A stretch of 64,000 nt of DNA from Nitrospirota bacterium (lineage in GTDB: Bacteria; Nitrospirota; Thermodesulfovibrionia; Thermodesulfovibrionales; Dissulfurispiraceae). Location: positions 47,926-111,925 of the forward strand of contig JBFMCP010000005.1 in the NCBI GenBank assembly GCA_040754455.1, read 5' to 3'. Below are positions 26,137-39,592 of this stretch, piece after piece. The position numbers were made by a program, and so were the translations under genes. How positions within the stretch are numbered: position 1 is the first letter of the stretch; each line of letters starts with the position of its first letter. The notes below the pieces were generated by a model. That model was not told the DNA's origin, searched no databases, and was given only the letters and a program-made list of their open reading frames with translations.

Positions 26137-28395
26137 CTATCCGAGTCCTATAAACTTTCCGCCTTGATAAATTGCAAACGCCACCACCCATGCAAGCACC
26201 ATCTGGTAGGCAAAGGCGATGCCGAACCACTTCCAGGTGCCGAATTCATGCCGCATGGCGACGGCCACCACAACGCACGGCATGTAGAGGAGGACGTAAA
26301 CAATAAACGCGTATGCCGAGAGAGGGGTAAACTGATTCTTGATAGCGTTCCTCAGCGATGCACGCTCCTCTGTTTCCTCCGTTGATTCCTCGGCAGACAT
26401 GCTCGAAACGCCGAACGCCGAAAAGACATTATTGAACGAGTCCGTTACCGCGCTGCCAAAGGAAGTCCCGATCTCTTTCAGGTCTTCCGTGAGTGTGGGA
26501 GCCGGTCCCTTCTCTTCCTCTGCACCCTTGGGAGCATATATCTCGCCCATAGTTCCCACGACAATCTCTTTCGCGATCAGGCCCGAAATCAGTGATGATG
26601 ACGCTTCCCAGTTTCCGAAGCCGAGCGGCTCAAAGATCGGAGCGATCACCTGGCCTGCCTTGCCGAGGTAGGAGTCCTTCTTATGCTCAACGCCCCAGGG
26701 CAGATTGAGGAGGAACCATACCATGATGGAGACTGCAAGGATATACGTTCCGGCCTTGATGAGAAAGTGCTTTCCCTTCTCCCATGTGTGTATCATGAGA
26801 CTCTTGAAAGATGGCATCCGGTACGGCGGAAGCTCCATAATAAACATCGGCGATTCGCCCTTAAAAAGAGTTCTCTTGAAGGCAATGCCCATTACTACTG
26901 CCAGCACGATACCCATCACATACAACGACCAGAGGACCGTTCCCGCATTCGAGGTAAAAAATGCTCCGATGAAGACGACGTATACCGGCAGACGCGCACC
27001 GCAGGACATCAGGGGTATCAATAATGCGGTGAGCGCCTTATCCCTGGGGTTTTCGAGTGTTCTCGTTGCGTAGATAGCAGGCACATTGCAGCCGAAGCCG
27101 AGCAGCATCGGGATGAATGATTTGCCGTGGAGCCCTATGGTGTGCATTGCCCTATCCATCACGAAAGCGGCTCGTGCCATATACCCGCTTCCCTCGAGAA
27201 AGGTAATAAAAAACATCATGGCGAAAATCACCGGGACAAAAACGAGCACCGAGCCGACACCGGCAATAATTCCCTCGGTCACGAGTGAGGCCACCCATGC
27301 AGGCGCATTGATAAATCCGATGGCTGCTGCTATCCACCGTTTGAAAGGCCCCGATGTCATACTATCGAGCCAGTCGGCAAAGGGTGATGACATATCAAAG
27401 GTAAGCTTGAACACCAGCCACATTGCGACGAGAAAAATGGGAATGCCCAGAAACCGGTTGAGCACTATTTTATCGATCTGCTCGGTGAGCTCCATTTTTC
27501 TGATATCAGGCTTTTTCATGACCTCATGGGTCAGGCCCGATGCTCTCGCATAACGCTCATCGGCCATCAGGGATTCGATATCTTCTCCATGCGCCTCTTT
27601 CAAATGCGCCAATGCTTCAGCAAGGAAACCGTTGCTCAGGACTCCGGTCTCCTGCAGTACATGGCTGTCCCCCTCCATAAACTTGAAGGCAAGCCATCTG
27701 TTCGGATACTTTGTTGTAAGATGAGGATACATCTGCTGCAATATATCCTCCACGCGCTCTGCAGCGGATTCGATGTCGCTGCCGTAGCTGAGCTGTTTCG
27801 GCTGGTGAGAGGATGGTCGTTCGGCACAGGCAATTGCTGCCGTTATCAGCTCTTTCAAGCCGACCTTTCTCGTCGCGACCGTCGGAATGATCGTGGCACC
27901 GAGCATCTGCTCCATAGCATTCACATCGATCTTGTACCCCTTTTTTTCGGCCTCGTCATAGATATTCAATGCCAAAACAATCGGTATGCCGAGCTCCATG
28001 AGTTGCACCGTGAGGTAGAGATTTCTCTCGAGGTTGGTGGCATCGACCACATTGATAATGACATCAGGCCTCTCACGGACGAGATAATCTCTTGCAACAA
28101 CCTCTTCTTGGGTATACGGGCTTAGGCTGTAGGTGCCGGGCAAGTCGACCAGTTTGATCTTTGTGCCCTCGTGGTCGAAAAGCGCCTTTTTCTTTTCTAC
28201 AGTAACGCCCGGCCAGTTGCCCACCTGAAGGCGCGTGCCAGCGATGGCATTGATAAGCGTAGATTTGCCGGAATTGGGATTACCCGCGACAGCAATGGTA
28301 ATAAATCCGCGCCGGGTGTCGCGCGTCGTGTGCCCGGCGATTGACGCCCGACGCTCAGCGGATCCAAAATCCTGGCTCCTGACTCCTGTGCTCAT
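26137..28395 (-). CDS. feoB: Ferrous iron transporter B (copy 2) with repeat-derived N-terminal extension
   Basis: GNPNSGKS, NWPGVT, DLPG, GFGCNVP, MSCGAR. Confidence 0.95.
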   Translation of the reverse strand: MSTGVRSQDFGSAERRASIAGHTTRDTRRGFITIAVAGNPNSGKSTLINAIAGTRLQVGNWPGVTVEKKKALFDHEGTKIKLVDLPGTYSLSPYTQEEVVARDYLVRERPDVIINVVDATNLERNLYLTVQLMELGIPIVLALNIYDEAEKKGYKIDVNAMEQMLGATIIPTVATRKVGLKELITAAIACAERPSSHQPKQLSYGSDIESAAERVEDILQQMYPHLTTKYPNRWLAFKFMEGDSHVLQETGVLSNGFLAEALAHLKEAHGEDIESLMADERYARASGLTHEVMKKPDIRKMELTEQIDKIVLNRFLGIPIFLVAMWLVFKLTFDMSSPFADWLDSMTSGPFKRWIAAAIGFINAPAWVASLVTEGIIAGVGSVLVFVPVIFAMMFFITFLEGSGYMARAAFVMDRAMHTIGLHGKSFIPMLLGFGCNVPAIYATRTLENPRDKALTALLIPLMSCGARLPVYVVFIGAFFTSNAGTVLWSLYVMGIVLAVVMGIAFKRTLFKGESPMFIMELPPYRMPSFKSLMIHTWEKGKHFLIKAGTYILAVSIMVWFLLNLPWGVEHKKDSYLGKAGQVIAPIFEPLGFGNWEASSSLISGLIAKEIVVGTMGEIYAPKGAEEEKGPAPTLTEDLKEIGTSFGSAVTDSFNNVFSAFGVSSMSAEESTEETEERASLRNAIKNQFTPLSAYAFIVYVLLYMPCVVVAVAMRHEFGTWKWFGIAFAYQMVLAWVVAFAIYQGGKFIGLG

Positions 28396-28619
28396 CCCGT
28401 CACCTCCACCGCTATTCCTTCCGCCTCTTTTTTCCTGAGAGAGAGCTTATAGTTTTTGATAGTCACTTCGATGGGGTCGCCGAGCGGCGCCACTTTTTCC
28501 ACCTTTACAGCCTCGCCGACCAGCACCCCCATGTCCATCAGCCGCCTCTTTAATGGACCGGTTACTCCTATATTGGTGATTTTCCCGCTCTCTCCTGGTT
28601 TCAGTTTTGCGAGGTTCAT
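28392..28619 (-). CDS. feoA: FeoA
   Basis: RRLMDMG, APLGDPI, LSLRK. Confidence 0.95.
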   Translation of the reverse strand: MNLAKLKPGESGKITNIGVTGPLKRRLMDMGVLVGEAVKVEKVAPLGDPIEVTIKNYKLSLRKKEAEGIAVEVTG

Positions 28620-28891
28620 TATTGTTGTCTCCTTACCATGACCTTCATCGCCATTCCTCGGCCTATCGCGATTCTTGTCTCATCGATTTTTACCAACAGC
28701 GCGCCTCTGCCTTCGTTGCTCAGCATTTCGACAATTTTGCCGGCGCGCAGCCCCATATCCTCTACCCTGCAGGTCGAGCCGCATGCCCCTGTTGCGCCTT
28801 TCGTAGCGCAGCATTGATGAATCTGGGTTGCTCCGCGGATTTCCATCACCTCAGCCATTTCACCTGTACTTAAAAGTCCCAACGGCATCAT
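28619..28891 (-). CDS. feoA: FeoA family protein with a Cys-rich loop
   Basis: RVEDMGLRAG, RIAIGRGMA; HQCC..CGSTC insert; start at 28891 after SD AGGAGG. Confidence 0.85.
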   Translation of the reverse strand: MMPLGLLSTGEMAEVMEIRGATQIHQCCATKGATGACGSTCRVEDMGLRAGKIVEMLSNEGRGALLVKIDETRIAIGRGMAMKVMVRRQQ

Positions 28892-28905
28892 AGTGTCTCC
28901 TCCTT

Positions 28906-29676
28906 TTAGAACCGCCATGCCATGCCTGCAAGAAACGTGTAGTCGGTTTCGGGCTTGTTAAGAGCTCCCTTAATGCCAACATCGATGTCAAGGTTTTCAT
29001 TTATCGAATAAATAACGCCACCCAGAACAAAGGCGGGATGATCATTCGATGCTTTGTCTCCGTTCCGCTCGATCCCGATATTGGCAACGGCCCTGAGATT
29101 CTTAATGACCTCGACCTCCGATGCAATGGATGCGTGCCATAAATCCTTCCGCTCATCGGCCTTATTTTCATTTCGAATATAGCCCAGATTGAGATGGAAT
29201 GCCCAGGGCTCAAGCTCTTTTGTAGAAATAAAGAACAGGCTGGAGGTAGCTCTTCCCGTTCCCAACCCATCTTCATCATCTCCTGTCGGCAGGGTAGTGC
29301 CGGGCTTCAGCGCAAAGCCTAATCCGTCTTTTTCGTAAAATCTCCACTTTACTTCGAGGGATATATCCGAAATACCGTCAACCGATGTCGTCACACCGTC
29401 CTCTTTCGTCCGTATCCACTGATAAGGAACTACGAGCACGACATCAACATTGTCCACAATGCCGTAAGAAAGTATGGTCGACAGTTCGCTCATTCTCTCT
29501 TTTGTTGTGATACCGTCTTCTTTTTCTTTGTCGTAGCTGAACTCACTGTTCACCTCAACCTGGAATTTCCCTTTGCCCATTGTGCCCGTGTCATCGGTGA
29601 TCAGCGGGTGTGCGGCATAGGTCAGCGTTGTTGTTGAAAACACCATTGCCAAAGCCACTACCATCTTTTTAAGCAC
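28906..29676 (-). CDS. Predicted outer-membrane beta-barrel ('transporter', MetA-pathway-like family)
   Basis: Signal peptide, AHPLITDDTGT, amphipathic beta strands, C-terminal WRF. Confidence 0.7.
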   Translation of the reverse strand: MLKKMVVALAMVFSTTTLTYAAHPLITDDTGTMGKGKFQVEVNSEFSYDKEKEDGITTKERMSELSTILSYGIVDNVDVVLVVPYQWIRTKEDGVTTSVDGISDISLEVKWRFYEKDGLGFALKPGTTLPTGDDEDGLGTGRATSSLFFISTKELEPWAFHLNLGYIRNENKADERKDLWHASIASEVEVIKNLRAVANIGIERNGDKASNDHPAFVLGGVIYSINENLDIDVGIKGALNKPETDYTFLAGMAWRF

Positions 29677-29974
29677 CTCTTACTCCTCCTTTTTGTTTTT
29701 CAATACAACTTAAGCAAGCCCTCAGCGTGCATACGCCGCAGGAGTGGTACATTAAGACAGGAATATTTCGAGCGTTCGCAACATCCATTGCTTCTTTTTT
29801 AATCTGGTGGGATGTTTTATTGGTAAAAATTACTACGGCATCGACATTCCTGATCCTCGAAGCCATATCAGCAGCCGACTTTGTGAAGACCCTGAGATCG
29901 ATACCTCTTTTTTCCGCCTCTTCTTTATAGTGCCGTTCAAGCCTGTCCATCCCGCCGATAACCGCTACACACAT
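29669..29974 (-). CDS. DUF2325-like protein
   Basis: VIGGMDRL..DAVVIFTNKTSH..HSCG; start 29974 after SD GAGGAGG. Confidence 0.75.
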   Translation of the reverse strand: MCVAVIGGMDRLERHYKEEAEKRGIDLRVFTKSAADMASRIRNVDAVVIFTNKTSHQIKKEAMDVANARNIPVLMYHSCGVCTLRACLSCIEKQKGGVRGA

Positions 29975-29994
29975 GGCAACCTCCTCACGTTTCT

Positions 29995-30009
29995 TGCGAC
30001 ACTGTCTCA
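29995..30009. promoter_or_regulatory. Second palindromic operator of the feo-2 operon
   Basis: TGCGACACTGTCTCA, ~10 nt upstream of the SD. Confidence 0.55.
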
Positions 30010-30153
30010 TTATCGCGTTTTAAAAAAGCTGAACTTGCATTCAGCATGATGTCCTCGTTTAGCCTCAGCCTCTTGCCCTACGCATTGGTGAGAAACATCG
30101 TTCCATCCGGTTCACCTTTGTCAATTTCCTTTTACTGCCGTTGCAAGAGCCTT

Positions 30154-30199
30154 ACTGAGACAGCGTCTCAGTTTAAACGAACATGCCTTTTCTTGTCAA
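30154..30199 (-). promoter_or_regulatory. feo-2 promoter overlapped by a perfect 8-3-8 palindrome
   Basis: TTGACA-18-TAAACT; ACTGAGAC-AGC-GTCTCAGT at 30154-30172. Confidence 0.75.
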
Positions 30200-30306
30200 G
30201 GGATTTTTTCAATGTAATAAGTGCCTGTTTTATTTTAGTTATCGAGGAAGCTATTAAGTCCGACACATTGAACTAATCAGAAGGATTCAACTATAATTCA
30301 ACTATT

Positions 30307-30561
30307 ATGTCGAATATAGTAGTAATAACACTGTTTTCTTTTATTCTTAACATCCCATTCGGTTACTTCAGAAAACGTTCAAGAAAGTATTCCCTGAAAT
30401 GGTTCCTCTATATACACTTGCCTGTTCCGCTCGTCATTCTTGTCCGACTTGTTTCACATGCTGAATATAAATATATTCCTCTCTTTATTGCAGCAGCGGT
30501 GGCCGGGCAATTCTGCGGGGGGAGATTAGATTTCAACAATGATTGCAAGCTATCTGATTAG
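30307..30561 (+). CDS. Small membrane protein of unknown function
   Basis: LNIPFGYFR..SLKWFLYIHLPVP, ~3 hydrophobic segments; overlaps the next start. Confidence 0.7.
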   Translation: MSNIVVITLFSFILNIPFGYFRKRSRKYSLKWFLYIHLPVPLVILVRLVSHAEYKYIPLFIAAAVAGQFCGGRLDFNNDCKLSD

Positions 30562-31552
30562 GCCCGGCGCTATCGAAATGCGAGAAGGCGCCACCCCCGT
30601 CCCCTCAAGAGGAGAAGTACTGGTAAGGATCAAAGCCGCCCTCACCTGCGGCACCGATCTGAAGGCATTCCTGAGAGGCCATCCCATGATTCCCATGCCC
30701 GGCGTCTTCGGCCATGAATTTTCCGGGATTGTCGAGGCGGTCGGCAAAGGTGTTACCAAATTCAATCCAGGCGATGCAATTATGTCAGTCCACAGCGCGC
30801 CCTGCCTCTCCTGCCGATACTGCAAGAAGAAGCTCTTTAACCTCTGCGAGCATATCATGCAGACAAAAGCCATGGGCGCCTTTGCTGATTACATTCTTCT
30901 GCCCGCACATATCGTTAAGCAGAACATCTTCCATAAACCCGCTCATATCAGCTTTGAGGAGGCTGCTTTTCTCGAACCCCTGGCATGTGTCGTCCACGGC
31001 ATGCAGGGGCTGAAAATTGGAAAAGGCACGACGGCATTAGTTATAGGGACCGGTCCGATCGGCCTGCTCCACCTCCTGCTGTTGAAACGCAAGGGAGCAA
31101 GCGTCATCATAACCGGACTGGAACAGGAGCGGCTCAATGTGGCACAGCAGCTCGGCGCTGATATGATTGTAGCTCCATCGGAGCTCACCAGCGCTGTTCC
31201 CGAATATACCAATGGTATCGGTGTCGATATGGCATTCGAGTGTACGGGACAGATCGACGTTTGGGAGACATCGGTCAATTATGTACGGCGGGGGGGAACC
31301 GTTGTCCTCTTTGGGGGCGTGAAACAGGGCACGGTCGTCAGTTATGACACTTACCGGCTCCATTACGATGAGCTGACGTTAAAAGGTGTCTTCCATTTCA
31401 CGCCCCACGATGTGAGAGCTGCCTATGACCTTCTGAAAACAACGCTGAACGTTGCGCCGCTTATTACCGGCGCTCATCCGCTCAGGGATCTTCCCCTCGC
31501 TCTTGAAAAGCTTTCGAAAGGCGAAGGGATCAAATATGCCATAATCCCCTAG
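30539..31552 (+). CDS. Zn-dependent medium-chain (polyol-type) dehydrogenase 1
   Basis: CGTD, GHE, CLSCRYC..C, GTGPIG. Confidence 0.9.
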   Translation: MIASYLIRPGAIEMREGATPVPSRGEVLVRIKAALTCGTDLKAFLRGHPMIPMPGVFGHEFSGIVEAVGKGVTKFNPGDAIMSVHSAPCLSCRYCKKKLFNLCEHIMQTKAMGAFADYILLPAHIVKQNIFHKPAHISFEEAAFLEPLACVVHGMQGLKIGKGTTALVIGTGPIGLLHLLLLKRKGASVIITGLEQERLNVAQQLGADMIVAPSELTSAVPEYTNGIGVDMAFECTGQIDVWETSVNYVRRGGTVVLFGGVKQGTVVSYDTYRLHYDELTLKGVFHFTPHDVRAAYDLLKTTLNVAPLITGAHPLRDLPLALEKLSKGEGIKYAIIP

Positions 31553-31873
31553 ATTCGGCCAACGCCTGAGGTCACAGGGAGGTGGGGCAGTTCCCCGCCG
31601 GTCCTATGAAGTGAAATGTTATGTGCTTCGGATATCGCCGCAGATTATCAATAGCCATCCATCAGGACTGCAAAGAAGAAACCGCGAATTGTCATATTTT
31701 CTTAAAATTGCCTAAAAGCACATTCGAAGAATTTTTAAACAGAAATTGTTGTAAAATCAATCGCATAACATTTTCATATTTTGTGTTTTGTGATATTATG
31801 GATACAAAATGAGATAGTGTAACATGGCAAACACGCCCCGGAGTCCACTGGATGCACTTTATGGAGAGAGCAA

Positions 31874-32932
31874 ATGAAAGCCGCTAAACTCTACAGCTTC
31901 ACCGATATACGTATCGAGGAGATACCCATCCCAGAAGTCGGCCCGCGCGATGTATTGATCAAAACAAAGGCCTGCGGCATCTGCTCCGGCGATGTGATGC
32001 CCTGGTATATCGAAAAAAAGGCGCCTCTCGTCCTCGGCCATGAACCGGCTGGCGAGATCGTCGAGCTCGGCAAGGAACTTCTTCAGCCGCCAGCCGCCAG
32101 CCGTCAGCCATCAGCCTTTAACATAGGCGATCGGGTCTTCGTGCACCACCACGCGCCGTGTATGGCCTGTCTCTGCTGCGAGCGGGGCGACCATGTGCAG
32201 TGCGAGACCTGGCGCACCACAAAGATCGTTCCCGGCGGCATTGCCGACTATATCCTCATTCCTGAGATGAATCTGAAGCATGACACCTTAAAGCTTCCGG
32301 ATGGCATGAGCTATGAAGACGGCACGCTCGTCGAGCCCACTGCCTGCGTCGTCAAATCACTGCGGCGTGCGGCTGTCAAAAGAGGAGATACGATGCTCGT
32401 CATCGGACTGGGCGTCATGGGACAGATGCATGTGCTCCTTGCAAAGGAATTCGGAGCAAAGACGGTCATCGGCGCCGATATGATTCCTTTCAGGCTGAAC
32501 AAGGCGCTGGAGTTCGGTGCGGATCATGTCATTGATGTAGCGAAAGCAGACCTCCTCGATGAGGTCAAACAGCTCACGTCGGGGAGAATGGCGGATATCG
32601 TCATCGTCGGTCCGAACAGCGCAGCAGCAATGCAACAGGGTATCTACGCGGCTGCGGCGGGAGGAACGGTCGTGTTTTTCACCCCTGCAAAACCGGACGA
32701 GACGCTGACGCTCGATCCCAACTATCTCTACTTCAAGGACATCAGCATTGTCACGAGCTATTCCTGCGGCCCTGATGATACCAAGGAGGCACTACGACTT
32801 ATCAACAAGGGACTTGTTACGGCAGAAAAACTCGTGACGCACCGGTTCGGCATCAATGAAACAGCACAGGCCTACAAAATAACCGCCGAAGCGCGGGACT
32901 CCCTGAAATGCCTCGTCACCTTCGGCGGCTAA
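31874..32932 (+). CDS. Zn-dependent medium-chain (polyol-type) dehydrogenase 2
   Basis: CSGD, GHE, CMACLCC..C, GLGVMG. Confidence 0.9.
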   Translation: MKAAKLYSFTDIRIEEIPIPEVGPRDVLIKTKACGICSGDVMPWYIEKKAPLVLGHEPAGEIVELGKELLQPPAASRQPSAFNIGDRVFVHHHAPCMACLCCERGDHVQCETWRTTKIVPGGIADYILIPEMNLKHDTLKLPDGMSYEDGTLVEPTACVVKSLRRAAVKRGDTMLVIGLGVMGQMHVLLAKEFGAKTVIGADMIPFRLNKALEFGADHVIDVAKADLLDEVKQLTSGRMADIVIVGPNSAAAMQQGIYAAAAGGTVVFFTPAKPDETLTLDPNYLYFKDISIVTSYSCGPDDTKEALRLINKGLVTAEKLVTHRFGINETAQAYKITAEARDSLKCLVTFGG

Positions 32933-32960
32933 CGATCCCGTTGATCCTTTTACGGAGCGC

Positions 32961-33932
32961 TTACACCGGCTTGATGCAACGCGCCGTTTCCTGCAAGAGC
33001 TTCGTAACGTCGAATTTCACCAGGTAGCCCTCGGCGCCGACGCTCTTCGCCTTCTCCTTGTTTTCCTCGCCGCTGAGTGAGGTGTTGATGATGATCGGTA
33101 TTGTCTGCAGCTTGGGATTGTTCTTTACATTCTTGGTAAAGGTGAGCCCGTCCATCTCGGGCATCTCCACATCGGAGATGATCAGCTGCACAAAGCTGGT
33201 AATGGGCTGGTCGCCGATCTTCGGGAGGAAATCATTGAGGATATCCAATGCCTGCTTACCGTCCTGCGCCTCGATGACATGGAGCCCTGCGTTTTCGAGG
33301 GTATCTTTGAGAATTCTTCTGGCGACGCCGGAATCATCGGCGATCAGTACGGTGCCCTTCAGCCTCTTCTTCTCGACCTTCTCTATTTCTTCGAGCGCTA
33401 TTTCGTGCTTCGGTACAAAGCCGCCCATCTCCGAAATAATGCTTTCGAGGTCGAGAATAAGCAGCAGCGATTCGGAATCCTCGTCGAGCTTTGTTACGCC
33501 GGTAATCCTGCCGCTGTGCTTTGCCTGGAGCATGGAGGGCGGGGGCTTTATCTGATCCCACTTGACGCGCCGTATCCGCTCCACGTCATGGACGATCATG
33601 CCGACCGTATTGCCGAACATTTCAAGGACGATCACCTTGAGCCGTATATCCATAGAGGAAGGAGGGTTTATCTGCATCCATTTGCCGAGGTCAACAACCG
33701 GGATCACCTCGCCGCGCACCTCGGCAAGGGCCTCGGCATAGGCGGGCATATCAGGCACTTTGGTAAGGGTTGGCATAGGGATGATCTCCCTTACTTTTGC
33801 CACGTTCACTCCATAATCAAGGACTTCCTGGGTGCCGTCAGGATGGGTACCGTACATCCTGAAGACTACGAGCTCCATTTCATTGGTCCCGACTTTCAAG
33901 ACTTCCGGCAAAGCACCTGCGTTCTGAGCCAT
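32961..33932 (-). CDS. cheV: Chemotaxis protein CheV (CheW + receiver)
   Basis: YGVNVAKVREI, ADDS, SDVEMPEMDG, TSLSG, VKF; start 33932 after SD GGAGG. Confidence 0.92.
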   Translation of the reverse strand: MAQNAGALPEVLKVGTNEMELVVFRMYGTHPDGTQEVLDYGVNVAKVREIIPMPTLTKVPDMPAYAEALAEVRGEVIPVVDLGKWMQINPPSSMDIRLKVIVLEMFGNTVGMIVHDVERIRRVKWDQIKPPPSMLQAKHSGRITGVTKLDEDSESLLLILDLESIISEMGGFVPKHEIALEEIEKVEKKRLKGTVLIADDSGVARRILKDTLENAGLHVIEAQDGKQALDILNDFLPKIGDQPITSFVQLIISDVEMPEMDGLTFTKNVKNNPKLQTIPIIINTSLSGEENKEKAKSVGAEGYLVKFDVTKLLQETARCIKPV

Positions 33933-34042
33933 GTTGCCTCCATTATGCTTACTTTTCAAAAGATTTTGACCGGCTGCCCGTATATGTATATATGTATAAT
34001 CGGGTTTTTGCATGAAAATCTTGAATTGATTTATAATGTGCT

Positions 34043-34543
34043 ATGGCAAAAATGAAAAACAGAGCAACTACTCAGGAAAACACCGCCCCGTCCTGCGACT
34101 GGAGACGTCCGACAAAAAGAGCGGTAGACGGTAACAAGAACCGCCTTTGCAAGCACAAAGGGGCATTCACCTGGAGCGGCGTCAAAACCGATCGTTACAA
34201 GCAGAAAGAGGGGGGGTGGTCATCAATCGTAAGAAATGTGCTTATCGGCGAAAACGGAGAGACCGCCCGATTCCATCTGCGCTATTTCGAGATTGCGCCA
34301 GGCGGCTTCAGCAGCCTTGAACAGCACCGCCACGAGCACGTCGTGGTATGCATACGCGGCAAGGGAAAAATCAGAATGGGGCGAAAGGTACATACCATCA
34401 ATTACCTCGACACCGCCTATGTAGCGCCCGACACGGTCCACCAGTTAACAAATCCCTACGACGAGCCGTTCGGCTTTTTCTGCATCGTGAATGCAAAACG
34501 GGACAGGCCGAAGCTGGTTAAAGCCGCATCAAAAAGAAAATAG
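34043..34543 (+). CDS. Cupin resembling 1-methylthio-D-xylulose-5-phosphate methylsulfurylase
   Basis: FTWSGV..YK, LRYFEIAPGGFSSLEQHRHEH, HQ, PFGFFCIVNAKRDRP; the cupin fold is secure, the specific family is from recall. Confidence 0.7.
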   Translation: MAKMKNRATTQENTAPSCDWRRPTKRAVDGNKNRLCKHKGAFTWSGVKTDRYKQKEGGWSSIVRNVLIGENGETARFHLRYFEIAPGGFSSLEQHRHEHVVVCIRGKGKIRMGRKVHTINYLDTAYVAPDTVHQLTNPYDEPFGFFCIVNAKRDRPKLVKAASKRK

Positions 34544-34588
34544 CCCATCGCACCCATATCGCAGCACCATACGCATAAACAATCCTTA

Positions 34589-35893
34589 TCACTTTACCAG
34601 GTTCGACAATACCAGCACCGTCCAGTACGGCGAGATCATGAGGATGGCAATAGCAATAAGATACGAAGGAATATAATAGAAGCCTCCCTTGAAGACCGTG
34701 GCAAGAGGAATGTCCGCCATGCCGGCGACGACATAGCAACATATGCCGATCGGCGGCATGATCGAGCCCATGGTCGTCACAATCGTGATCACTTGGCCGA
34801 ACCAGACCGGATCGTATCCCATCTGTATCACCAGGGGATAGAAAATCGGCAGCGAGATGAGCAGAAACGCAAGGGCATCCATAACGCACCCGCCGATAAT
34901 ATAAAAGAACAGGATGACCCAGAGCACCACCCATTTCGGCAGGGCGAGGGCACCGATCCACGCCGCTGCCTCGAAGGGCAGTCTCGTCAGCGTGAGAAAA
35001 CGACCGAAGATGACCGCGCCGGCAACGATCATAAAGACCATACAGGAAATTCGTAGGGTATCGACAATCGAGGACTTAAACCCTTTCCACGAGAGCTTGC
35101 CCCGTGCAACACAGATGATGAGGGCAAGGGTGCAGCTCGCTGCTGCTGCCTCGGTCGCTGTCACCACGCCGGTAAAAAGCGCGATCATGATAATGGCGAA
35201 CAAAACAAGAATATCCAGAGCTTCAGGGAGCGCCTGCAACCGCTCTTTCCATGAGCTCCTCGGTCCCTTGGGCCCCCAATCAGGATGACGATAGCAAACG
35301 AAGAATACTGTCGCAGCAATTAAGACGGTAAGAATCGCACTGGGAATAACATTTCCGTAAAAGAGCTTGCCTATGGACTGTCCGGTATAGAGGCCGTACA
35401 CCACAAGCACAATGCTCGGGGGAATAAGAACACCAAGCGTTGCTCCGGCGGCGACAGCCCCGGCATTGAGGGTGGGATGATAGTTGTACTTTTTCATTGC
35501 TGGGATCGCCACGGCACTCATGGTTGCGGCAGTCGCCGTATTGGAGCCGCTGATGGCGGAAAAGGCAGCGGACGCCATGATCGTCGTAATGGCGAGGCCG
35601 CCGCGATAGTGGCCGAACCACCGGTAGGTTGCATAGTACAAACTGTTGTTGTACCCTGCGTAATGAACAAACTCACCGACGAGAATAAAAAGCGGAATAA
35701 CAGTGAGGCCGTAATTGGAAAAAATATTCCAGAGTTCCGAGCCGATCAGGCCGAAGGCGGCTTGCCATGAGGTAACGTACGCAATTCCGGCGAAGCCTAC
35801 CAGCGCCATGGTAAAGGCCGCCGGTATCCTGAGCAGGAACAGGACGGCAAACATGATGACAATGCCCCAGATGCCGACGAGAGGACCGCTCAC
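34589..35893 (-). CDS. dctM: TRAP transporter large permease
   Basis: IPLFIL, ISGS, LIPPS, TATEA, PPIG. Confidence 0.93.
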   Translation of the reverse strand: MSGPLVGIWGIVIMFAVLFLLRIPAAFTMALVGFAGIAYVTSWQAAFGLIGSELWNIFSNYGLTVIPLFILVGEFVHYAGYNNSLYYATYRWFGHYRGGLAITTIMASAAFSAISGSNTATAATMSAVAIPAMKKYNYHPTLNAGAVAAGATLGVLIPPSIVLVVYGLYTGQSIGKLFYGNVIPSAILTVLIAATVFFVCYRHPDWGPKGPRSSWKERLQALPEALDILVLFAIIMIALFTGVVTATEAAAASCTLALIICVARGKLSWKGFKSSIVDTLRISCMVFMIVAGAVIFGRFLTLTRLPFEAAAWIGALALPKWVVLWVILFFYIIGGCVMDALAFLLISLPIFYPLVIQMGYDPVWFGQVITIVTTMGSIMPPIGICCYVVAGMADIPLATVFKGGFYYIPSYLIAIAILMISPYWTVLVLSNLVK

Positions 35894-36384
35894 TGGTGCT
35901 CTCCCTCGTTCCTCTGGAAGGTCTTCAGGAAATCGACGACAAGCGTAAAGGTCTGCACGGCAAACCCGAGGGCAACGCAGAAGATAAAGGGATAGAAGAC
36001 AATCTGCAGCGTCTCGGAGAGCTCGCCTGCTTCCCTGATCTTCTGCCCCCAGCGGTATACCTGCCAGGTGATGACAGCGAAGAGGACTGCGGTAATGAAA
36101 TAGTTGAAGCGGTCGAGGGCCTTCTTCACCGGCGGGGGAAACTTATCCGTCAGGATATCGACGACAATATGGTCCTTCTTTTCCTGGGTAAACCCGAGCG
36201 CAAAAGCGGTAACGAGCGCGCCGAGAAAGGCGACGACTTCATACGTCCCTCTGAAAGGTGCATGGAAAATCCTGGAGAGCACGTTTCCCGTAGCAAGAAA
36301 GGTGAGGCACAACAGCGCTGCCCCGCCCAGAACTATCAGGAGTCTGTTGAGATATTTGCTTATTTTTTCGAGGAGTAAAAGCAT
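35890..36384 (-). CDS. dctQ: TRAP transporter small permease
   Basis: 4 TM, HIVVD motif. Confidence 0.9.
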   Translation of the reverse strand: MLLLLEKISKYLNRLLIVLGGAALLCLTFLATGNVLSRIFHAPFRGTYEVVAFLGALVTAFALGFTQEKKDHIVVDILTDKFPPPVKKALDRFNYFITAVLFAVITWQVYRWGQKIREAGELSETLQIVFYPFIFCVALGFAVQTFTLVVDFLKTFQRNEGEHQ

Positions 36385-36427
36385 TCTTTGTAAATTTGCA
36401 CCATTCTTATTGACAATCGAGGGAATA

Positions 36428-36491
36428 GAAAAGCCAGCAGTCGAAATGAATAATATCTTTTATTCTGACTTCCGGCTCCTGAATTCTGACT
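36428..36491. repeat. Heptamer-periodic repeat (AGGAGYC type)
   Basis: TTCTGAC TTCCGGC TCCTGAA TTCTGAC with a degenerate left arm. Confidence 0.65.
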
Positions 36492-36493
36492 TT

Positions 36494-37528
36494 TTATTTG
36501 TGCTGCTTCTCGTATTTCTTCTTCAGCAGATTCACGTCTTTGACGATCTGATCTCCGGGCAACCCGAGGGCGTTCACCTTCTTGATGTATTCACCGACCA
36601 TCGGGTGCAGCAGCTTCTGAATCTCGGCCCTGTCTTTTGCCGGCAGCTGGATCACCTGGTGCTTGTATTCCTTCCTTGACCACTCGAGCGCCTCTTTTAC
36701 ATGTTTGTCGACATAATCGCCGGTCCAGAGCGCCTGCTCTTTCCTCAGGTCATCGATGACTTTTTTGACATCAGCGGGGAGGCTGTTCCACTTCTCCTTG
36801 TTCATTACGACTGCAAAAGAGACGACAGGAAGCTCTGCAATAGTTGCATACGGGGTATAGGCCGCAAATTTGAAGTCCTGCAGTATTTCGAGCGATGAGA
36901 GCATGCCTTTCACGACACCTTTCTGCAGCGCTTCGGGCACCTCTGATTGCGGCATGGCCACCGGGATGCCGCCGAGGCGTTTCACTACCTCTGCTCCCGT
37001 AGCCGCTGCACGCACCTCCATTCCCTTCAAATCAGCCAGTGATTTCACCGGCGTTTTGGTCATGAGATTGGTCGGCGGGCAGGTAAACAGCGTAATGATT
37101 TTAACCTTCTCGAATTCCTTCGGATTATATTTCTCGATGAGATCATAAAGCACAAGGCTCGCAACCTTTGCACTCTTGAAGCCGACCGGAAGATCGACCG
37201 CCTCGGATACGGGGAAGCGGCCCGGCTGATAGCTCATCGCAAAGTTACCGATATCGGCTGCCCCGGAAATGACGCCGTCGAAAATGTTCTTTGCCGGGAG
37301 CAGCGTGCCGCCGGGGAATGTCTGGACCTTCACTTTCCCCTTTGTCCGCTTCTCCACCTCTTTGGCCCAGCGTTCCATCTGCACGCTCGGAAAGGTCGAT
37401 GCAGGAGGGAAATTGGCATACGTAAGGGTTATGACCTGCTCCGCCGATGATGTCACCGGCGCCATAAGGAGAGCACCCAGAAGAGACATCAGTGCCGTAG
37501 CAACCACTGCAGCTTTCTTGATATCCAT
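36494..37528 (-). CDS. dctP: TRAP transporter solute-binding protein
   Basis: Signal peptide, FPGGTL, DLKGMEVR, EALQKGVV. Confidence 0.92.
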   Translation of the reverse strand: MDIKKAAVVATALMSLLGALLMAPVTSSAEQVITLTYANFPPASTFPSVQMERWAKEVEKRTKGKVKVQTFPGGTLLPAKNIFDGVISGAADIGNFAMSYQPGRFPVSEAVDLPVGFKSAKVASLVLYDLIEKYNPKEFEKVKIITLFTCPPTNLMTKTPVKSLADLKGMEVRAAATGAEVVKRLGGIPVAMPQSEVPEALQKGVVKGMLSSLEILQDFKFAAYTPYATIAELPVVSFAVVMNKEKWNSLPADVKKVIDDLRKEQALWTGDYVDKHVKEALEWSRKEYKHQVIQLPAKDRAEIQKLLHPMVGEYIKKVNALGLPGDQIVKDVNLLKKKYEKQHK

Positions 37529-37672
37529 ACACTACCTCCCTGTTTGTTTACTGGTAAGTTTTTTTTGCAAAAGCAGCGCGTTATCATATCATGTTTGCAT
37601 GCCTTTTGCCCACCTCACAGGCGCTGAAGTGATGATTTCATCAGCCTGCGCTCCCACATTGAAGGTGTTTGC

Positions 37673-37740
37673 TTGACAAGCTTTCTTAAAGGAACGTAGT
37701 ATAAAAGCTCATCCCATGTACTGCATTTTGCGTGGCAAAA
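37673..37740 (+). promoter_or_regulatory. ior promoter and downstream palindrome
   Basis: TTGACA-18-TAGTAT; TTTTGC-GTG-GCAAAA at 37726-37740. Confidence 0.5.
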
Positions 37741-37774
37741 ACGTAAACTATCCTTATTTCGGAGCGTTTCTGGA

Positions 37775-39592
37775 GTGAATAACCGCATTCTGATGATGGG
37801 CAACGAGGCGATTGCGCGGGGACTCGTCGAGGAAGGCTGCTCCCTTGCAACATCCTATCCGGGCACACCTGCCTCCGAGATACTCCCCGGTATCGCAAAA
37901 TGGAAAAGCGAGCTCTCCCTCCCGCTCCATGTCCAGTGGGCGGTCAATGAAAAGATCGCCTTCGAAATCGCCTATGCAGGGAGCATCGCCGGGCTCCGCA
38001 CCGCCGTAAGCATGAAGCAGGTCGGGCTCAGTGTCGCATCGGACCCGCTCATGAGCGCTGCCTACATGGGCGTAAAAGGCGGATTCATCATTATTAGCGC
38101 CGATGACCCGGGGCCCCACTCATCGCAGACGGAGCAGGACAGCCGTCTGATGGCGATGTTTGCCAAAGTCCCGGTGCTCGATCCCTCAACTCCCCGGGAG
38201 GCAAAAGAATGCATCGCGCTCGCCTATGAGCTCTCCGAAGCGTTCGAGATACCGGTTCTGCTGCGCCCTACCACACGGGTCTGCCATGCATCGCAGGATA
38301 TAGCCCTGGGAGAAATTCATACCATCAATCGGGAGCGCGGCTTTCAAAAGGAACCTGCCCGCTGGGCGGCAACACCGAAATTCCGCTACCTGCTGCATCG
38401 CGCCCTGAATGACAAGCTCGCCGCCATAGCCGGCTGGCAGAAGACCGCCCCGAGACTGCTCAACCCGGACGTAACATCGACAAAAGCAATCGTCACCAGC
38501 GGTGTCGCAGCAGCGCATACCAGGGATATCATGGGTGACCTCGAGCTCTGGGAAAAGGTTGCCGTATACCAGGTCATTCAGCCCTATCCGCTCCATACCG
38601 GATTCATCAGCATGCTCCTCAAAACGTATAATGAAATTCTCGTACTGGAGGAAACAACAGGCGTCATCGAAATGCAACTCGCACGCCGTGACAAAATCCG
38701 CGGCAAGATGGCCAGTGCGGTGCCTGAGGCAGGAGAACTGCTGCCGGAGGTTATCGAACAGCTCATCGCTGATTTTGCGCAGGTCACACGCCGACCGCTC
38801 CCGGCACCGCCGGCCGTTCCCGGGAGAAGACCGAGCCTCTGTCCGGGATGTCCCCACCGGGCGAGCTTTTTCGCCATTAAAAAGGCGATACCGCACAGCA
38901 CGAGCATTTATGCAAGCGATATCGGGTGCTATACGCTCGGGCTGAACCTCGGCGCTATCGATACCTTCCTCTGCATGGGGGCATCGATCAGCGAGGCTGC
39001 AGGCTTCTACCACGCCTATCGTCAGATGAACAAGGAAACCAATATCGTCGCGACCATTGGAGATTCGACTTTTTTCCATGCAGGCATTCCGGCACTGGTC
39101 GATGCGGTTGTGCAGGATGCCCGTTTTGTCCTTGTCATTCTCGACAATTCGACCACTGCCATGACCGGGAACCAGCCGACTCCCGCAACAGGGGTTGGTG
39201 CATGCGGCGATGCAACGAGCAAGGTTGCGATCGAAGATATCGTCAAGAGTTGCGGAGTGACGTTCTGCGAGATAGGCAATCCTTATCTCCTGCCTGAGTT
39301 CACCGACCTTCTCAAGAAGGCGAACAAGCACAGCACAACAGAAGGGCTTGCGGTGGTCATTGCGCGTTATCCCTGCCTGGTCGATAAACGGAGCAAAGGC
39401 AGCCGATTACCCGGCGCTCCCATAACCATTTCCGAAGAGTGTGACGGCTGCAGGTACTGCGTCAAGGAATTCGAGTGCCCTGCCCTTGAATTTGATGAGC
39501 AGACGAAGAAGACCCATGTTAATACATTGCTGTGCACCGGGTGCGGCATCTGCATCCATGTCTGTCCCAAAAAAGCAATCGGGAAAGGATAA
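37775..39592 (+). CDS. iorA: Indolepyruvate:ferredoxin oxidoreductase alpha subunit
   Basis: GNEAIARG, YPGTP, SSQTEQD, CPGCPH, GDSTF, AMTG, C-terminal ferredoxin. Confidence 0.95.
   Translation: MNNRILMMGNEAIARGLVEEGCSLATSYPGTPASEILPGIAKWKSELSLPLHVQWAVNEKIAFEIAYAGSIAGLRTAVSMKQVGLSVASDPLMSAAYMGVKGGFIIISADDPGPHSSQTEQDSRLMAMFAKVPVLDPSTPREAKECIALAYELSEAFEIPVLLRPTTRVCHASQDIALGEIHTINRERGFQKEPARWAATPKFRYLLHRALNDKLAAIAGWQKTAPRLLNPDVTSTKAIVTSGVAAAHTRDIMGDLELWEKVAVYQVIQPYPLHTGFISMLLKTYNEILVLEETTGVIEMQLARRDKIRGKMASAVPEAGELLPEVIEQLIADFAQVTRRPLPAPPAVPGRRPSLCPGCPHRASFFAIKKAIPHSTSIYASDIGCYTLGLNLGAIDTFLCMGASISEAAGFYHAYRQMNKETNIVATIGDSTFFHAGIPALVDAVVQDARFVLVILDNSTTAMTGNQPTPATGVGACGDATSKVAIEDIVKSCGVTFCEIGNPYLLPEFTDLLKKANKHSTTEGLAVVIARYPCLVDKRSKGSRLPGAPITISEECDGCRYCVKEFECPALEFDEQTKKTHVNTLLCTGCGICIHVCPKKAIGKG

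Follow-up and report, generated by a model that had tools for sequence, protein, structure and literature searches.

Two zinc dehydrogenases in the place of a RuBisCO-like protein: a candidate branch of the methylthioadenosine-isoprenoid shunt in Nitrospirota

We examined a 64,000-nucleotide stretch of a Nitrospirota genome (contig JBFMCP010000005.1, positions 47,926 to 111,925; hereafter the window), in which two zinc-dependent genes of the medium-chain dehydrogenase/reductase (MDR) type, designated MDR1 and MDR2, lie near a gene for a small cupin. A first-pass annotation had proposed that the two dehydrogenases replace the RuBisCO-like protein (RLP) of the route from 5'-methylthioadenosine (MTA) to DXP (1-deoxy-D-xylulose 5-phosphate). 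Comparative genomics supported this interpretation: the three genes travel together, the genome encodes the upstream enzyme MtnA, and no RLP was found in it. MDR1, MDR2, and the cupin almost certainly form one functional module; they co-occur and are syntenic in two phyla. Judged from sequence comparison, we give a probability of roughly 60% to this module being an RLP-independent branch of the route from MTA, perhaps also from 5'-deoxyadenosine, to DXP. The three genes are as follows.

30539-31552, plus strand: MDR1, a polyol-dehydrogenase-type zinc MDR of 337 amino acids (ADH_N and ADH_zinc_N domains)
31874-32932, plus strand: MDR2, a polyol-dehydrogenase-type zinc MDR of 352 amino acids (ADH_N and ADH_zinc_N domains)
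34043-34543, plus strand: the cupin, 166 amino acids (Cupin_2 domain)

The distribution of the genes was surveyed in 372 genomes, namely 251 of Nitrospirota and 121 of a second order, labelled Desulfuromonadales, which was sampled around one of three such cupin loci. Among the Nitrospirota, the cupin was found in 74 genomes and orthologs of MDR1 and MDR2 in 60 each; cupin and MDR2 occurred together in 59, cupin and MDR1 in 58, all three in 56, and none in 175. The co-occurrence that the earlier proposal called for was thus observed in 59 of the 60 MDR2 carriers and 58 of the 60 MDR1 carriers, and 61 of the 63 genomes with either ortholog had the cupin. A sample of 41 relatives, including the genome of the window, was also inspected. 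The cupin was present in 35 of them, the RuBisCO family (PF00016) in four, and MtnA in all 41. The 31 cupin carriers outside the four with PF00016 contained an MDR2 ortholog (at least 52% identical) in 30 cases and an MDR1 ortholog (at least 51%) in 30; the misses were G005, whose cupin lies at a contig end, and G014, a genome 66% complete. Five of the six cupin-negative relatives had neither MDR, and the sixth, G038, had both at contig ends.

Nitrospirota cupin carriers without either dehydrogenase all had a RuBisCO-family protein. In the four PF00016-containing relatives, the cupin was fused to the RLP (frames of 533 amino acids in G027 and 540 in G039) or adjacent to it (G006 and G028), and MDR orthologs were lacking, the best matches being at most 35% (MDR1) and at most 43% (MDR2) identical, or none. 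G006 belongs to the family of the window's genome; there and in G028 the RLP stands beside a divergent cupin, and kin of these genomes carry the trio. The RLPs of these relatives were nearest to the PDB entry 3qfw (264 and 249 bits), which we take to be a DeepYkr-type RLP, ahead of MtnW enolases and Photo-type RLPs. Likewise, all 13 cupin carriers without either MDR in the Nitrospirota sample had a PF00016 protein: as a fusion in five (G027, G039, G163, G235, and G261), adjacent in three (G028, G102, and G242), and elsewhere in the genome in five, whose divergent cupins are 31-34% identical. No MDR ortholog was thus seen in the eight genomes of that sample with a fused or adjacent RLP, nor in G006, in line with the anti-correlation foreseen in the first-pass annotation. 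No DeepYkr-type RLP was detected in the module-containing genomes checked.

The same pattern was observed in the second order, where the cupin occurred in 17 of the 121 genomes. All ten genomes with a cupin 51-59% identical to that of the window lacked a PF00016 protein and had an MDR2 ortholog (51-55%) as the immediate neighbour of the cupin. Six further cupins lay in frames of 539-587 amino acids shared with a PF00016 match, that is, in RLP-cupin fusions, and MDR2 was absent from all six genomes; the anti-correlation with the RLP was therefore seen in this order as well. G384 had a weak cupin match with neither MDR2 nor PF00016, and in G330 a contig began with a partial MDR2. In all six second-order loci read, MDR1, MDR2, and the cupin were contiguous on one strand, and in one of them (L138) successive module genes overlapped by 4 nt. 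The mutual exclusion of the module and the RLP-cupin is expected of alternatives for one task.

Gene order was examined in 80 cupin loci from species genomes, with cupins 50-73% identical, of which 65 had enough upstream sequence to be evaluated. An MDR2 ortholog was found in 55 of these 65 loci, as expected if the dehydrogenases are syntenic with the cupin; in 30 it was directly upstream on the same strand, with gaps of 3-370 bp. MDR1 was found in 26 loci, immediately upstream of MDR2 in 15 of them, and the three genes formed a tight trio in 11.

The cupin itself points to the RLP step. When it was compared with solved structures, the best match was 3ibm (E 3.1e-25) and the second was 3jzv (E 7.2e-25), residues 38-161 of the cupin aligning to residues 15-137 of 3jzv (124 residues). 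The latter was deposited as "uncharacterized protein Rru_A2000". Rru_A2000 of Rhodospirillum rubrum is reported to be the methylsulfurylase acting on MTXu-5-P (1-methylthio-D-xylulose 5-phosphate), and Rru_A1998 to be the RLP supplying its substrate (PMC4334135). The motif of this methylsulfurylase, which had been noted in the first-pass annotation, hence reflects true homology, far above chance. A library of 50% clusters contained 299 relatives of the cupin at E <= 1e-10. Among 34 long relatives scanned, 25 were fusions of RuBisCO_large and Cupin_2, and the other nine had other or no extra domains; a fusion of an MDR with the cupin was sought in the same 34 and none was found. Both the homology with Rru_A2000 and the prevalence of RLP fusions among the long relatives tie the cupin family to the RLP step. 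JGI names many stand-alone cupins of the family "ribulose-bisphosphate carboxylase large chain"; this label was probably carried over from the RLP-cupin fusion proteins and is misleading for genome-based RuBisCO counts.

A tree was built from 200 cupin domains; given the shortness of the alignment and the lack of resolution at most deep forks, its only trustworthy branch is the one that unites the MDR-linked cupins. This clade (SH-aLRT 97) took in all 51 MDR-linked cupins, nine whose flanks had no MDR, and 19 whose context is unknown; the 29 RLP-linked cupins all lay outside it. The cupin of the window falls inside the clade. Despite this separation, 23 positions reached 90% conservation or more among the 60 MDR-clade cupins as well as among the 29 RLP-linked ones: W44, Y52, K53, R64, L67, G69, F77, R80, Y81, F82, G88, E93, H95, H97, H99, G106, D123, H133, G144, F145, C147, V149, and R153. 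The positions kept in both groups include the histidines that bind metal, one invariant cysteine, and four basic residues, and the family motifs RYFE, HxHxH, HQ, and GFxCxV..RD are common to the window cupin, the RLP-linked members, and the 3jzv alignment. The retention of these core residues, including the histidine cluster, argues that MDR-linked cupins would keep the same reaction and the same phosphorylated substrate; the cupin is accordingly proposed to release the methylthio group from MTXu-5-P to give DXP.

A further conserved motif, S-C-D/E-W, was noticed in the N-terminal arm of the cupin (residues 17-20, window positions 34091-34102). Its cysteine occurs in 52 of the 60 MDR-clade cupins vs 13 of the 29 RLP-linked ones, and the motif is duplicated in two second-order cupins (L136, 3589-4149; L137, 3027-3584). 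As a speculation, this cysteine and the near-invariant Cys147 might supply the thiol chemistry that glutathione gives in R. rubrum.

We then consider the other genes of the pathway. The genome of the window (3.27 Mb) is 100% complete with 2% contamination. PF00016 gave no match in it, control genomes matching as expected. MtnA was found on contig C3 (418 bits; cut-off 279), and two copies of the MTA phosphorylase MtnP (MTAP family) on contigs C1 and C35 (318 and 300 bits; cut-off 275), one of them adjoining an adenine phosphoribosyltransferase gene. Two observations that had been named in advance as refuting the proposal, an RLP in the genome or the lack of mtnA, were thus not made, and the caveat that mtnA and mtnP lie outside the window was accurate. 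Dxs (849 bits) and Dxr (511 bits) both exceeded their cut-offs. Because both are present, DXP has a sink in the methylerythritol phosphate (MEP) pathway. The idea that the module substitutes for a missing Dxs was rejected, since Dxs is present.

On contig C3, the next gene after mtnA, in the same orientation, resembles polyprenyl-diphosphate synthases, as judged from its DDxxD motif (L001, 437-2580, minus strand). Of 20 genomes from the order (L140-L159), 17 contained the pair, with the MDR module, with an RLP-cupin, or with neither, and in most genomes the next gene is one that we take to be AMMECR1-like. The pair may link MTA salvage to isoprenoid genes, yet plain synteny is possible as well.

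MDR1 and MDR2 share 30% identity and the same ADH_N/ADH_zinc_N architecture, so the description of them as tandem dissimilar zinc MDR genes was borne out. The best NCBIfam match of both was threonine dehydrogenase (MDR1, 170 bits with a cut-off of 380; MDR2, 151.5 bits with a cut-off of 458), and the galactitol-1-phosphate 5-dehydrogenase model gave 120 and 88 bits (cut-off 550). In public annotations, members of the MDR2 group go by generic names ("sorbitol dehydrogenase", "L-iditol 2-dehydrogenase", and "zinc-binding dehydrogenase"). The best solved relatives of MDR1 were sorbitol dehydrogenase (1pl6) and the NADP(H)-dependent ketose reductase 1e3j. In both proteins, the CGxD cysteine (CGTD and CSGD), GHE, and EP(L/T), which we take from the family to be the zinc ligands, align with those of sorbitol dehydrogenase and are conserved in the orthologs; a structural Cys4 zinc lobe and the Rossmann motif GxGxxG are also present. 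The ortholog groups have motifs of their own, namely CGTDLKAFxRGH in MDR1 and WYIEKKAP and HHHAPC in MDR2.

The two proteins differ at the site that discriminates the cofactors. In this fold, an Asp where the second Rossmann strand ends usually indicates NAD(H), and its absence NADP(H). The residue is Asp in the NAD-dependent sorbitol dehydrogenase, Ala in 1e3j, and Gly193 in MDR1. At least 80% of 26 MDR1 orthologs retain Gly193 and, five residues further on, Arg198. The equivalent residue of MDR2, Asp203, aligns with the Asp of the NAD-dependent sorbitol dehydrogenase and is at least 97% conserved in 57 orthologs. Hence NADP(H) is the expected cofactor of MDR1 and NAD(H) that of MDR2, a combination that fits one reductase plus one oxidase. 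Furthermore, conserved basic residues are found beside the catalytic Cys (K42, R46, and H48 in MDR1; K49 and HHH91-93 in MDR2), and these would suit a phosphate ester or another anionic substrate.

Open frames of 722 (G295) and 695 (G317) amino acids holding MDR2 matches suggested a fusion of MDR1 with MDR2. This was ruled out: a 708-amino-acid frame of L136 contains a single ADH_N/ADH_zinc_N pair, MDR2 begins at its residue 366, and the part before it overlaps MDR1 out of frame, in DNA rich in GC. Yet another group of MDRs, a third, which shares 39-43% identity with MDR2, was observed in 13 of the 41 relatives, RLP-cupin genomes included, and did not track the module (G006, G013, G014, G018, G019, G026, G028, G029, G034, G035, G037, G038, and G040).

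From these features, the following route is proposed. MtnP and MtnA would convert MTA, and probably also 5'-deoxyadenosine, to 5-methylthioribulose 1-phosphate (MTRu-1-P) or 5-deoxyribulose 1-phosphate. One dehydrogenase, most likely MDR1 with its NADP(H)-type site, would reduce the C2 ketone to the corresponding D-arabinitol 1-phosphate analogue, and the other, most likely MDR2 with its NAD-type Asp, would oxidise the C4 hydroxyl group of this pentitol phosphate. The product would be MTXu-5-P or, from the 5-deoxy substrate, DXP directly. Finally, the cupin would remove the methylthio group with a thiol and yield DXP for the MEP pathway; for 5-deoxyribulose 1-phosphate, the same two redox steps would suffice and the cupin would be unneeded. 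Here we infer the substrates, the step taken by each MDR, the order of the steps, the cofactor use, and the stereochemistry, and which steps and cofactors belong to MDR1 and which to MDR2 is proposed only tentatively.

The ketone is at C2 in MTRu-1-P and at the old C4 in MTXu-5-P, so that reduction at C2 and oxidation at C4 would spare C3. In R. rubrum, the shunt is described as running through MtnP, MtnA, and a DeepYkr RLP that gives MTXu-5-P and 1-methylthioribulose 5-phosphate at 3:1, followed by the cupin with glutathione (PMC5893883). With C3 untouched, only the xylulo epimer should form, unlike this mixture. The gene order MDR1-MDR2-cupin matches the order of the proposed steps, although oxidation might come first. 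A more specific version, which we consider somewhat unlikely, makes the MDR pair a self-contained carbonyl transposase: NADPH with MDR1 would act at C2 and NAD+ with MDR2 at C4, the NADPH/NAD+ poise would drive the isomerisation, 5'-deoxyadenosine would be converted to DXP with no carbon lost, and the cupin would serve only the methylthio analogue.

Several observations weigh against the proposed route to DXP. MtnA, with which the module had been expected to co-occur, was indeed found in every one of the 41 relatives, but equally in those without the module, and in the second order it was found in five of five module-bearing genomes and above its cut-off in four of five module-lacking ones; it is thus necessary and not discriminating. 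No mtnA or mtnP gene was found in any of the 80 cupin loci with 10-kb flanks. Dxs is present in the genome of the window, so the route is not required for DXP. Both MDRs score far under every NCBIfam equivalog cut-off, and their substrates are not readable from their sequences. The window has no single operon, as cheV interrupts the genes and a gap of 321 bp separates MDR1 from MDR2. Ten of the 65 evaluable loci had no MDR in the flanks of the cupin; where their genomes could be checked, the MDR pair was found elsewhere in the genome (e.g., G008 and G018). Another PF00016 protein was present in ten of the 59 Nitrospirota genomes with cupin and MDR2. In these ten it is higher-scoring, full-length, and away from the cupin, and two of the ten were classified: that of G096 is nearest to true RuBisCOs (8u66, 430 bits), and that of G042 to the Photo-type RLPs of Chlorobium and to Rhodopseudomonas palustris RLP2 (1tel, 328 bits). 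According to PMC5893883, R. palustris RLP2 shows no activity on MTRu-1-P. Full-length RuBisCO sequences (nearest 8u66, 6hun, and 2cwx) were noted in two genomes of one genus (G096, C1:609427-610299; G134, C1:900257-901129), about 15 kb from the cupin and MDR2, and were not seen in the other eight of the ten genomes sampled from that genus.

Finally, the MDR-linked cupins form a separate clade, so an altered substrate is possible. Their separation from all 29 RLP-linked cupins, the consistent absence of mtnA and mtnP from the cupin neighbourhood, the indiscriminate presence of MtnA, and the position of the MDRs outside any characterised equivalog would suit a module for another substrate, in which the cupin clade has changed its reaction to another thioether or sugar phosphate and the MDRs act on an unrelated polyol phosphate. 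We regard this as unlikely. The 23 core residues shared by both cupin groups, with the histidine cluster, C147, and four basic residues at the 90% level, and the mutual exclusion of module and RLP-cupin within families and in two phyla are both contrary to it. Moreover, in Fischer projections the redox route would yield exactly the product of the RLP, in the right configuration. The dehydrogenases might instead work beside or after the cupin, by reducing carbonyls such as methylthioacetaldehyde from an aldolase route while another enzyme makes the cupin substrate, or by C4 oxidation, the cupin reaction, and then C2 reduction. The dihydroxyacetone phosphate (DHAP) shunts, as they are presented in PMC5893883, need an unidentified alcohol dehydrogenase, and the genome encodes a protein that could belong to such a route. 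Its sole class II aldolase domain lies in the C-terminal half of a 404-amino-acid protein (L004, 1450-2664, minus strand, contig C51) and scores 70 bits with Pfam Aldolase_II; its best NCBIfam match, the "aldolase" model PRK08660, gave 143 bits (cut-off 203), and the gene adjoins a fragment of an aldehyde:ferredoxin oxidoreductase gene. This protein may provide a DHAP-shunt-like alternative fate for MTRu-1-P or 5-deoxyribulose 1-phosphate. However, the domain was found in five of five relatives lacking the cupin module (with a frame of similar length, 393-426 amino acids, in three), so it does not track the MDRs. An aldehyde-reductase role would leave unexplained both the presence of two dissimilar MDRs of the polyol type and their exclusion by the RLP-cupin, and the oxidation-first variant would pass through a 2,4-diketone phosphate, which should be chemically labile. 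We therefore consider a role beside or after the cupin very unlikely.

The least probable explanation, which we hold to be extremely unlikely, is that the genes stand together only because their order was inherited, with no function in common, and that the MDRs are ordinary polyol or threonine dehydrogenases. Gene order is certainly conserved around the cupin in other respects: secA and cytochrome c biogenesis genes recur near it in 22-28 of the 80 loci and look like lineage synteny, and the mtnA-polyprenyl synthase synteny is lineage-wide irrespective of the module. In another phylum, the trio is nevertheless contiguous again, in one locus with genes overlapping by 4 nt, and the genes are lost together, five of the six cupin-negative relatives lacking both MDRs and the sixth having them at contig ends. 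The cupin carriage of 61 of the 63 genomes with either MDR also speaks against mere inheritance.

Five open reading frames (ORFs) lie within window positions 30307-34543. Besides the module genes, they are as follows.

30307-30561, plus strand: a small predicted membrane protein of 84 amino acids from the ORF list, overlapping the start of MDR1 by 23 nt
32961-34013, minus strand: cheV (CheW and Response_reg domains, the CheV architecture)

All four genes named in the first-pass annotation (MDR1, MDR2, cheV, and the cupin) were found where it had placed them. Its caveat that the genes appear to have separate promoters also held, as cheV lies on the other strand before the cupin and 321 bp separate MDR1 and MDR2. 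The cheV gene, inserted between MDR2 and the cupin, presumably plays no part in the pathway. The same insertion was found in 17 of the 55 loci holding MDR2, where the MDR2-cupin gap is about 1.1-1.3 kb; because it is retained in so many, it is an old and stable interruption of the operon in one sub-lineage. The listed start of cheV is probably 26 codons too early, ortholog alignments beginning at an internal MAQN....

In Pfam and NCBIfam the 84-amino-acid protein had no match, and the Atlas clusters closest to it consist of hypothetical proteins without a name. By tblastn, the ORF was present in 20 of the 80 cupin loci, directly upstream of MDR1 (itself found in 26). A promoter-like TTGAAC-18-TATAAT was observed at 30268-30297, but such sites are not commoner here than expected by chance; likewise, a promoter and terminator scan of 29600-34800 gave counts not above those of shuffled sequence, and a search of 28000-38000 for riboswitches and RNA elements gave two matches only, far under the gathering scores. 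Downstream of the cupin (34589-39592) lie genes for a DctPQM-type tripartite ATP-independent periplasmic (TRAP) transporter, these on the minus strand, and for the alpha subunit of an indolepyruvate:ferredoxin oxidoreductase (649.6 bits; cut-off 650.9). No tie of either to the module was seen in the other cupin loci.

If the proposed route is correct, the module would be a second solution to the step of the RuBisCO superfamily, mechanistically different in that it uses redox chemistry vs proton transfer, and a stereochemically cleaner route would be predicted. It would give a function to two large gene groups now annotated as "sorbitol dehydrogenase". 5'-Deoxyadenosine is a by-product of radical-SAM enzymes (SAM, S-adenosylmethionine), and a carbon-conserving fate for it would be suggested in anaerobes rich in these enzymes. 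Should the carbonyl transposase version hold, strict anaerobes would have a new salvage route into the precursors of isoprenoids and thiamin, and an enzyme of the RuBisCO superfamily would have been replaced by non-homologous ones. In a survey of MEP-pathway genomes, some with "only the MTXu-5P methylsulfurase" are mentioned among Dxs-less candidates, the passage giving no explanation for them (PMC10663253). The module, with the dehydrogenase pair at the place of the RLP in at least two phyla, would account for such methylsulfurase-only genomes. A dehydrogenase route from MTRu-1-P or 5-deoxyribulose 1-phosphate to MTXu-5-P or DXP was not described in the literature searched, outside of which subscription-only papers lay, and among the papers listed there was no mention of methylthioarabitol, methylthioarabinitol, 5-deoxyarabitol, or 5-deoxyarabinitol. 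Taken together, these findings suggest that the module is probably an undescribed variant of the known MTA-isoprenoid shunt.

That shunt is among the closest known systems. In R. rubrum and R. palustris it comprises the RLP Rru_A1998/RPA2169 and the cupin Rru_A2000/RPA2170. Like R. rubrum, the genome of the window has MtnP, MtnA, a homologous cupin with the shared core residues, and the MEP pathway, and the expected end products are likewise DXP and a methylthio group on a thiol. Unlike R. rubrum, it has no RLP, and two NAD(P)-dependent zinc dehydrogenases stand in the genomic and phyletic place of this protein. The carbonyl shift would be carried out by reduction and oxidation via a pentitol phosphate, whereas the RLP uses proton transfers, and the by-product 1-methylthio-ribulose 5-phosphate should be avoided.

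The proposed second step has a precedent on the unsubstituted sugar. D-Arabitol-phosphate dehydrogenase (APDH) is a medium-chain zinc dehydrogenase. The enzymes of Enterococcus avium and Bacillus methanolicus (AtlD) are reported to interconvert arabitol 1-phosphate and xylulose 5-phosphate (PMC6685057). The likeness drawn here is one of reaction, and APDH serves arabitol catabolism after uptake by the phosphotransferase system, unlike the module, which would salvage a by-product of SAM. In domains, zinc motifs, Cys4 lobe, and GxGxxG, the MDRs resemble human (1pl6) and sheep (3qe3) sorbitol dehydrogenase, 1e3j of the whitefly, and L-threonine 3-dehydrogenase. They nevertheless match the solved polyol MDRs with E-values of just about 1e-35 to 1e-38, have the motifs of their own ortholog groups, and reach 142-170 bits against the NCBIfam cut-offs of 380-458 for L-threonine 3-dehydrogenase.

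The DHAP shunt (MtnP or MtnK, MtnA, and the aldolase Ald2) is described as handling both MTA and 5'-deoxyadenosine (PMC10441430, PMC5893883). The proposed route resembles it in starting from the products of MtnP and MtnA and in taking both methylthio and 5-deoxy substrates. The DHAP shunt splits the sugar into DHAP and an aldehyde, whereas the dehydrogenase route would keep all five carbons together as DXP.

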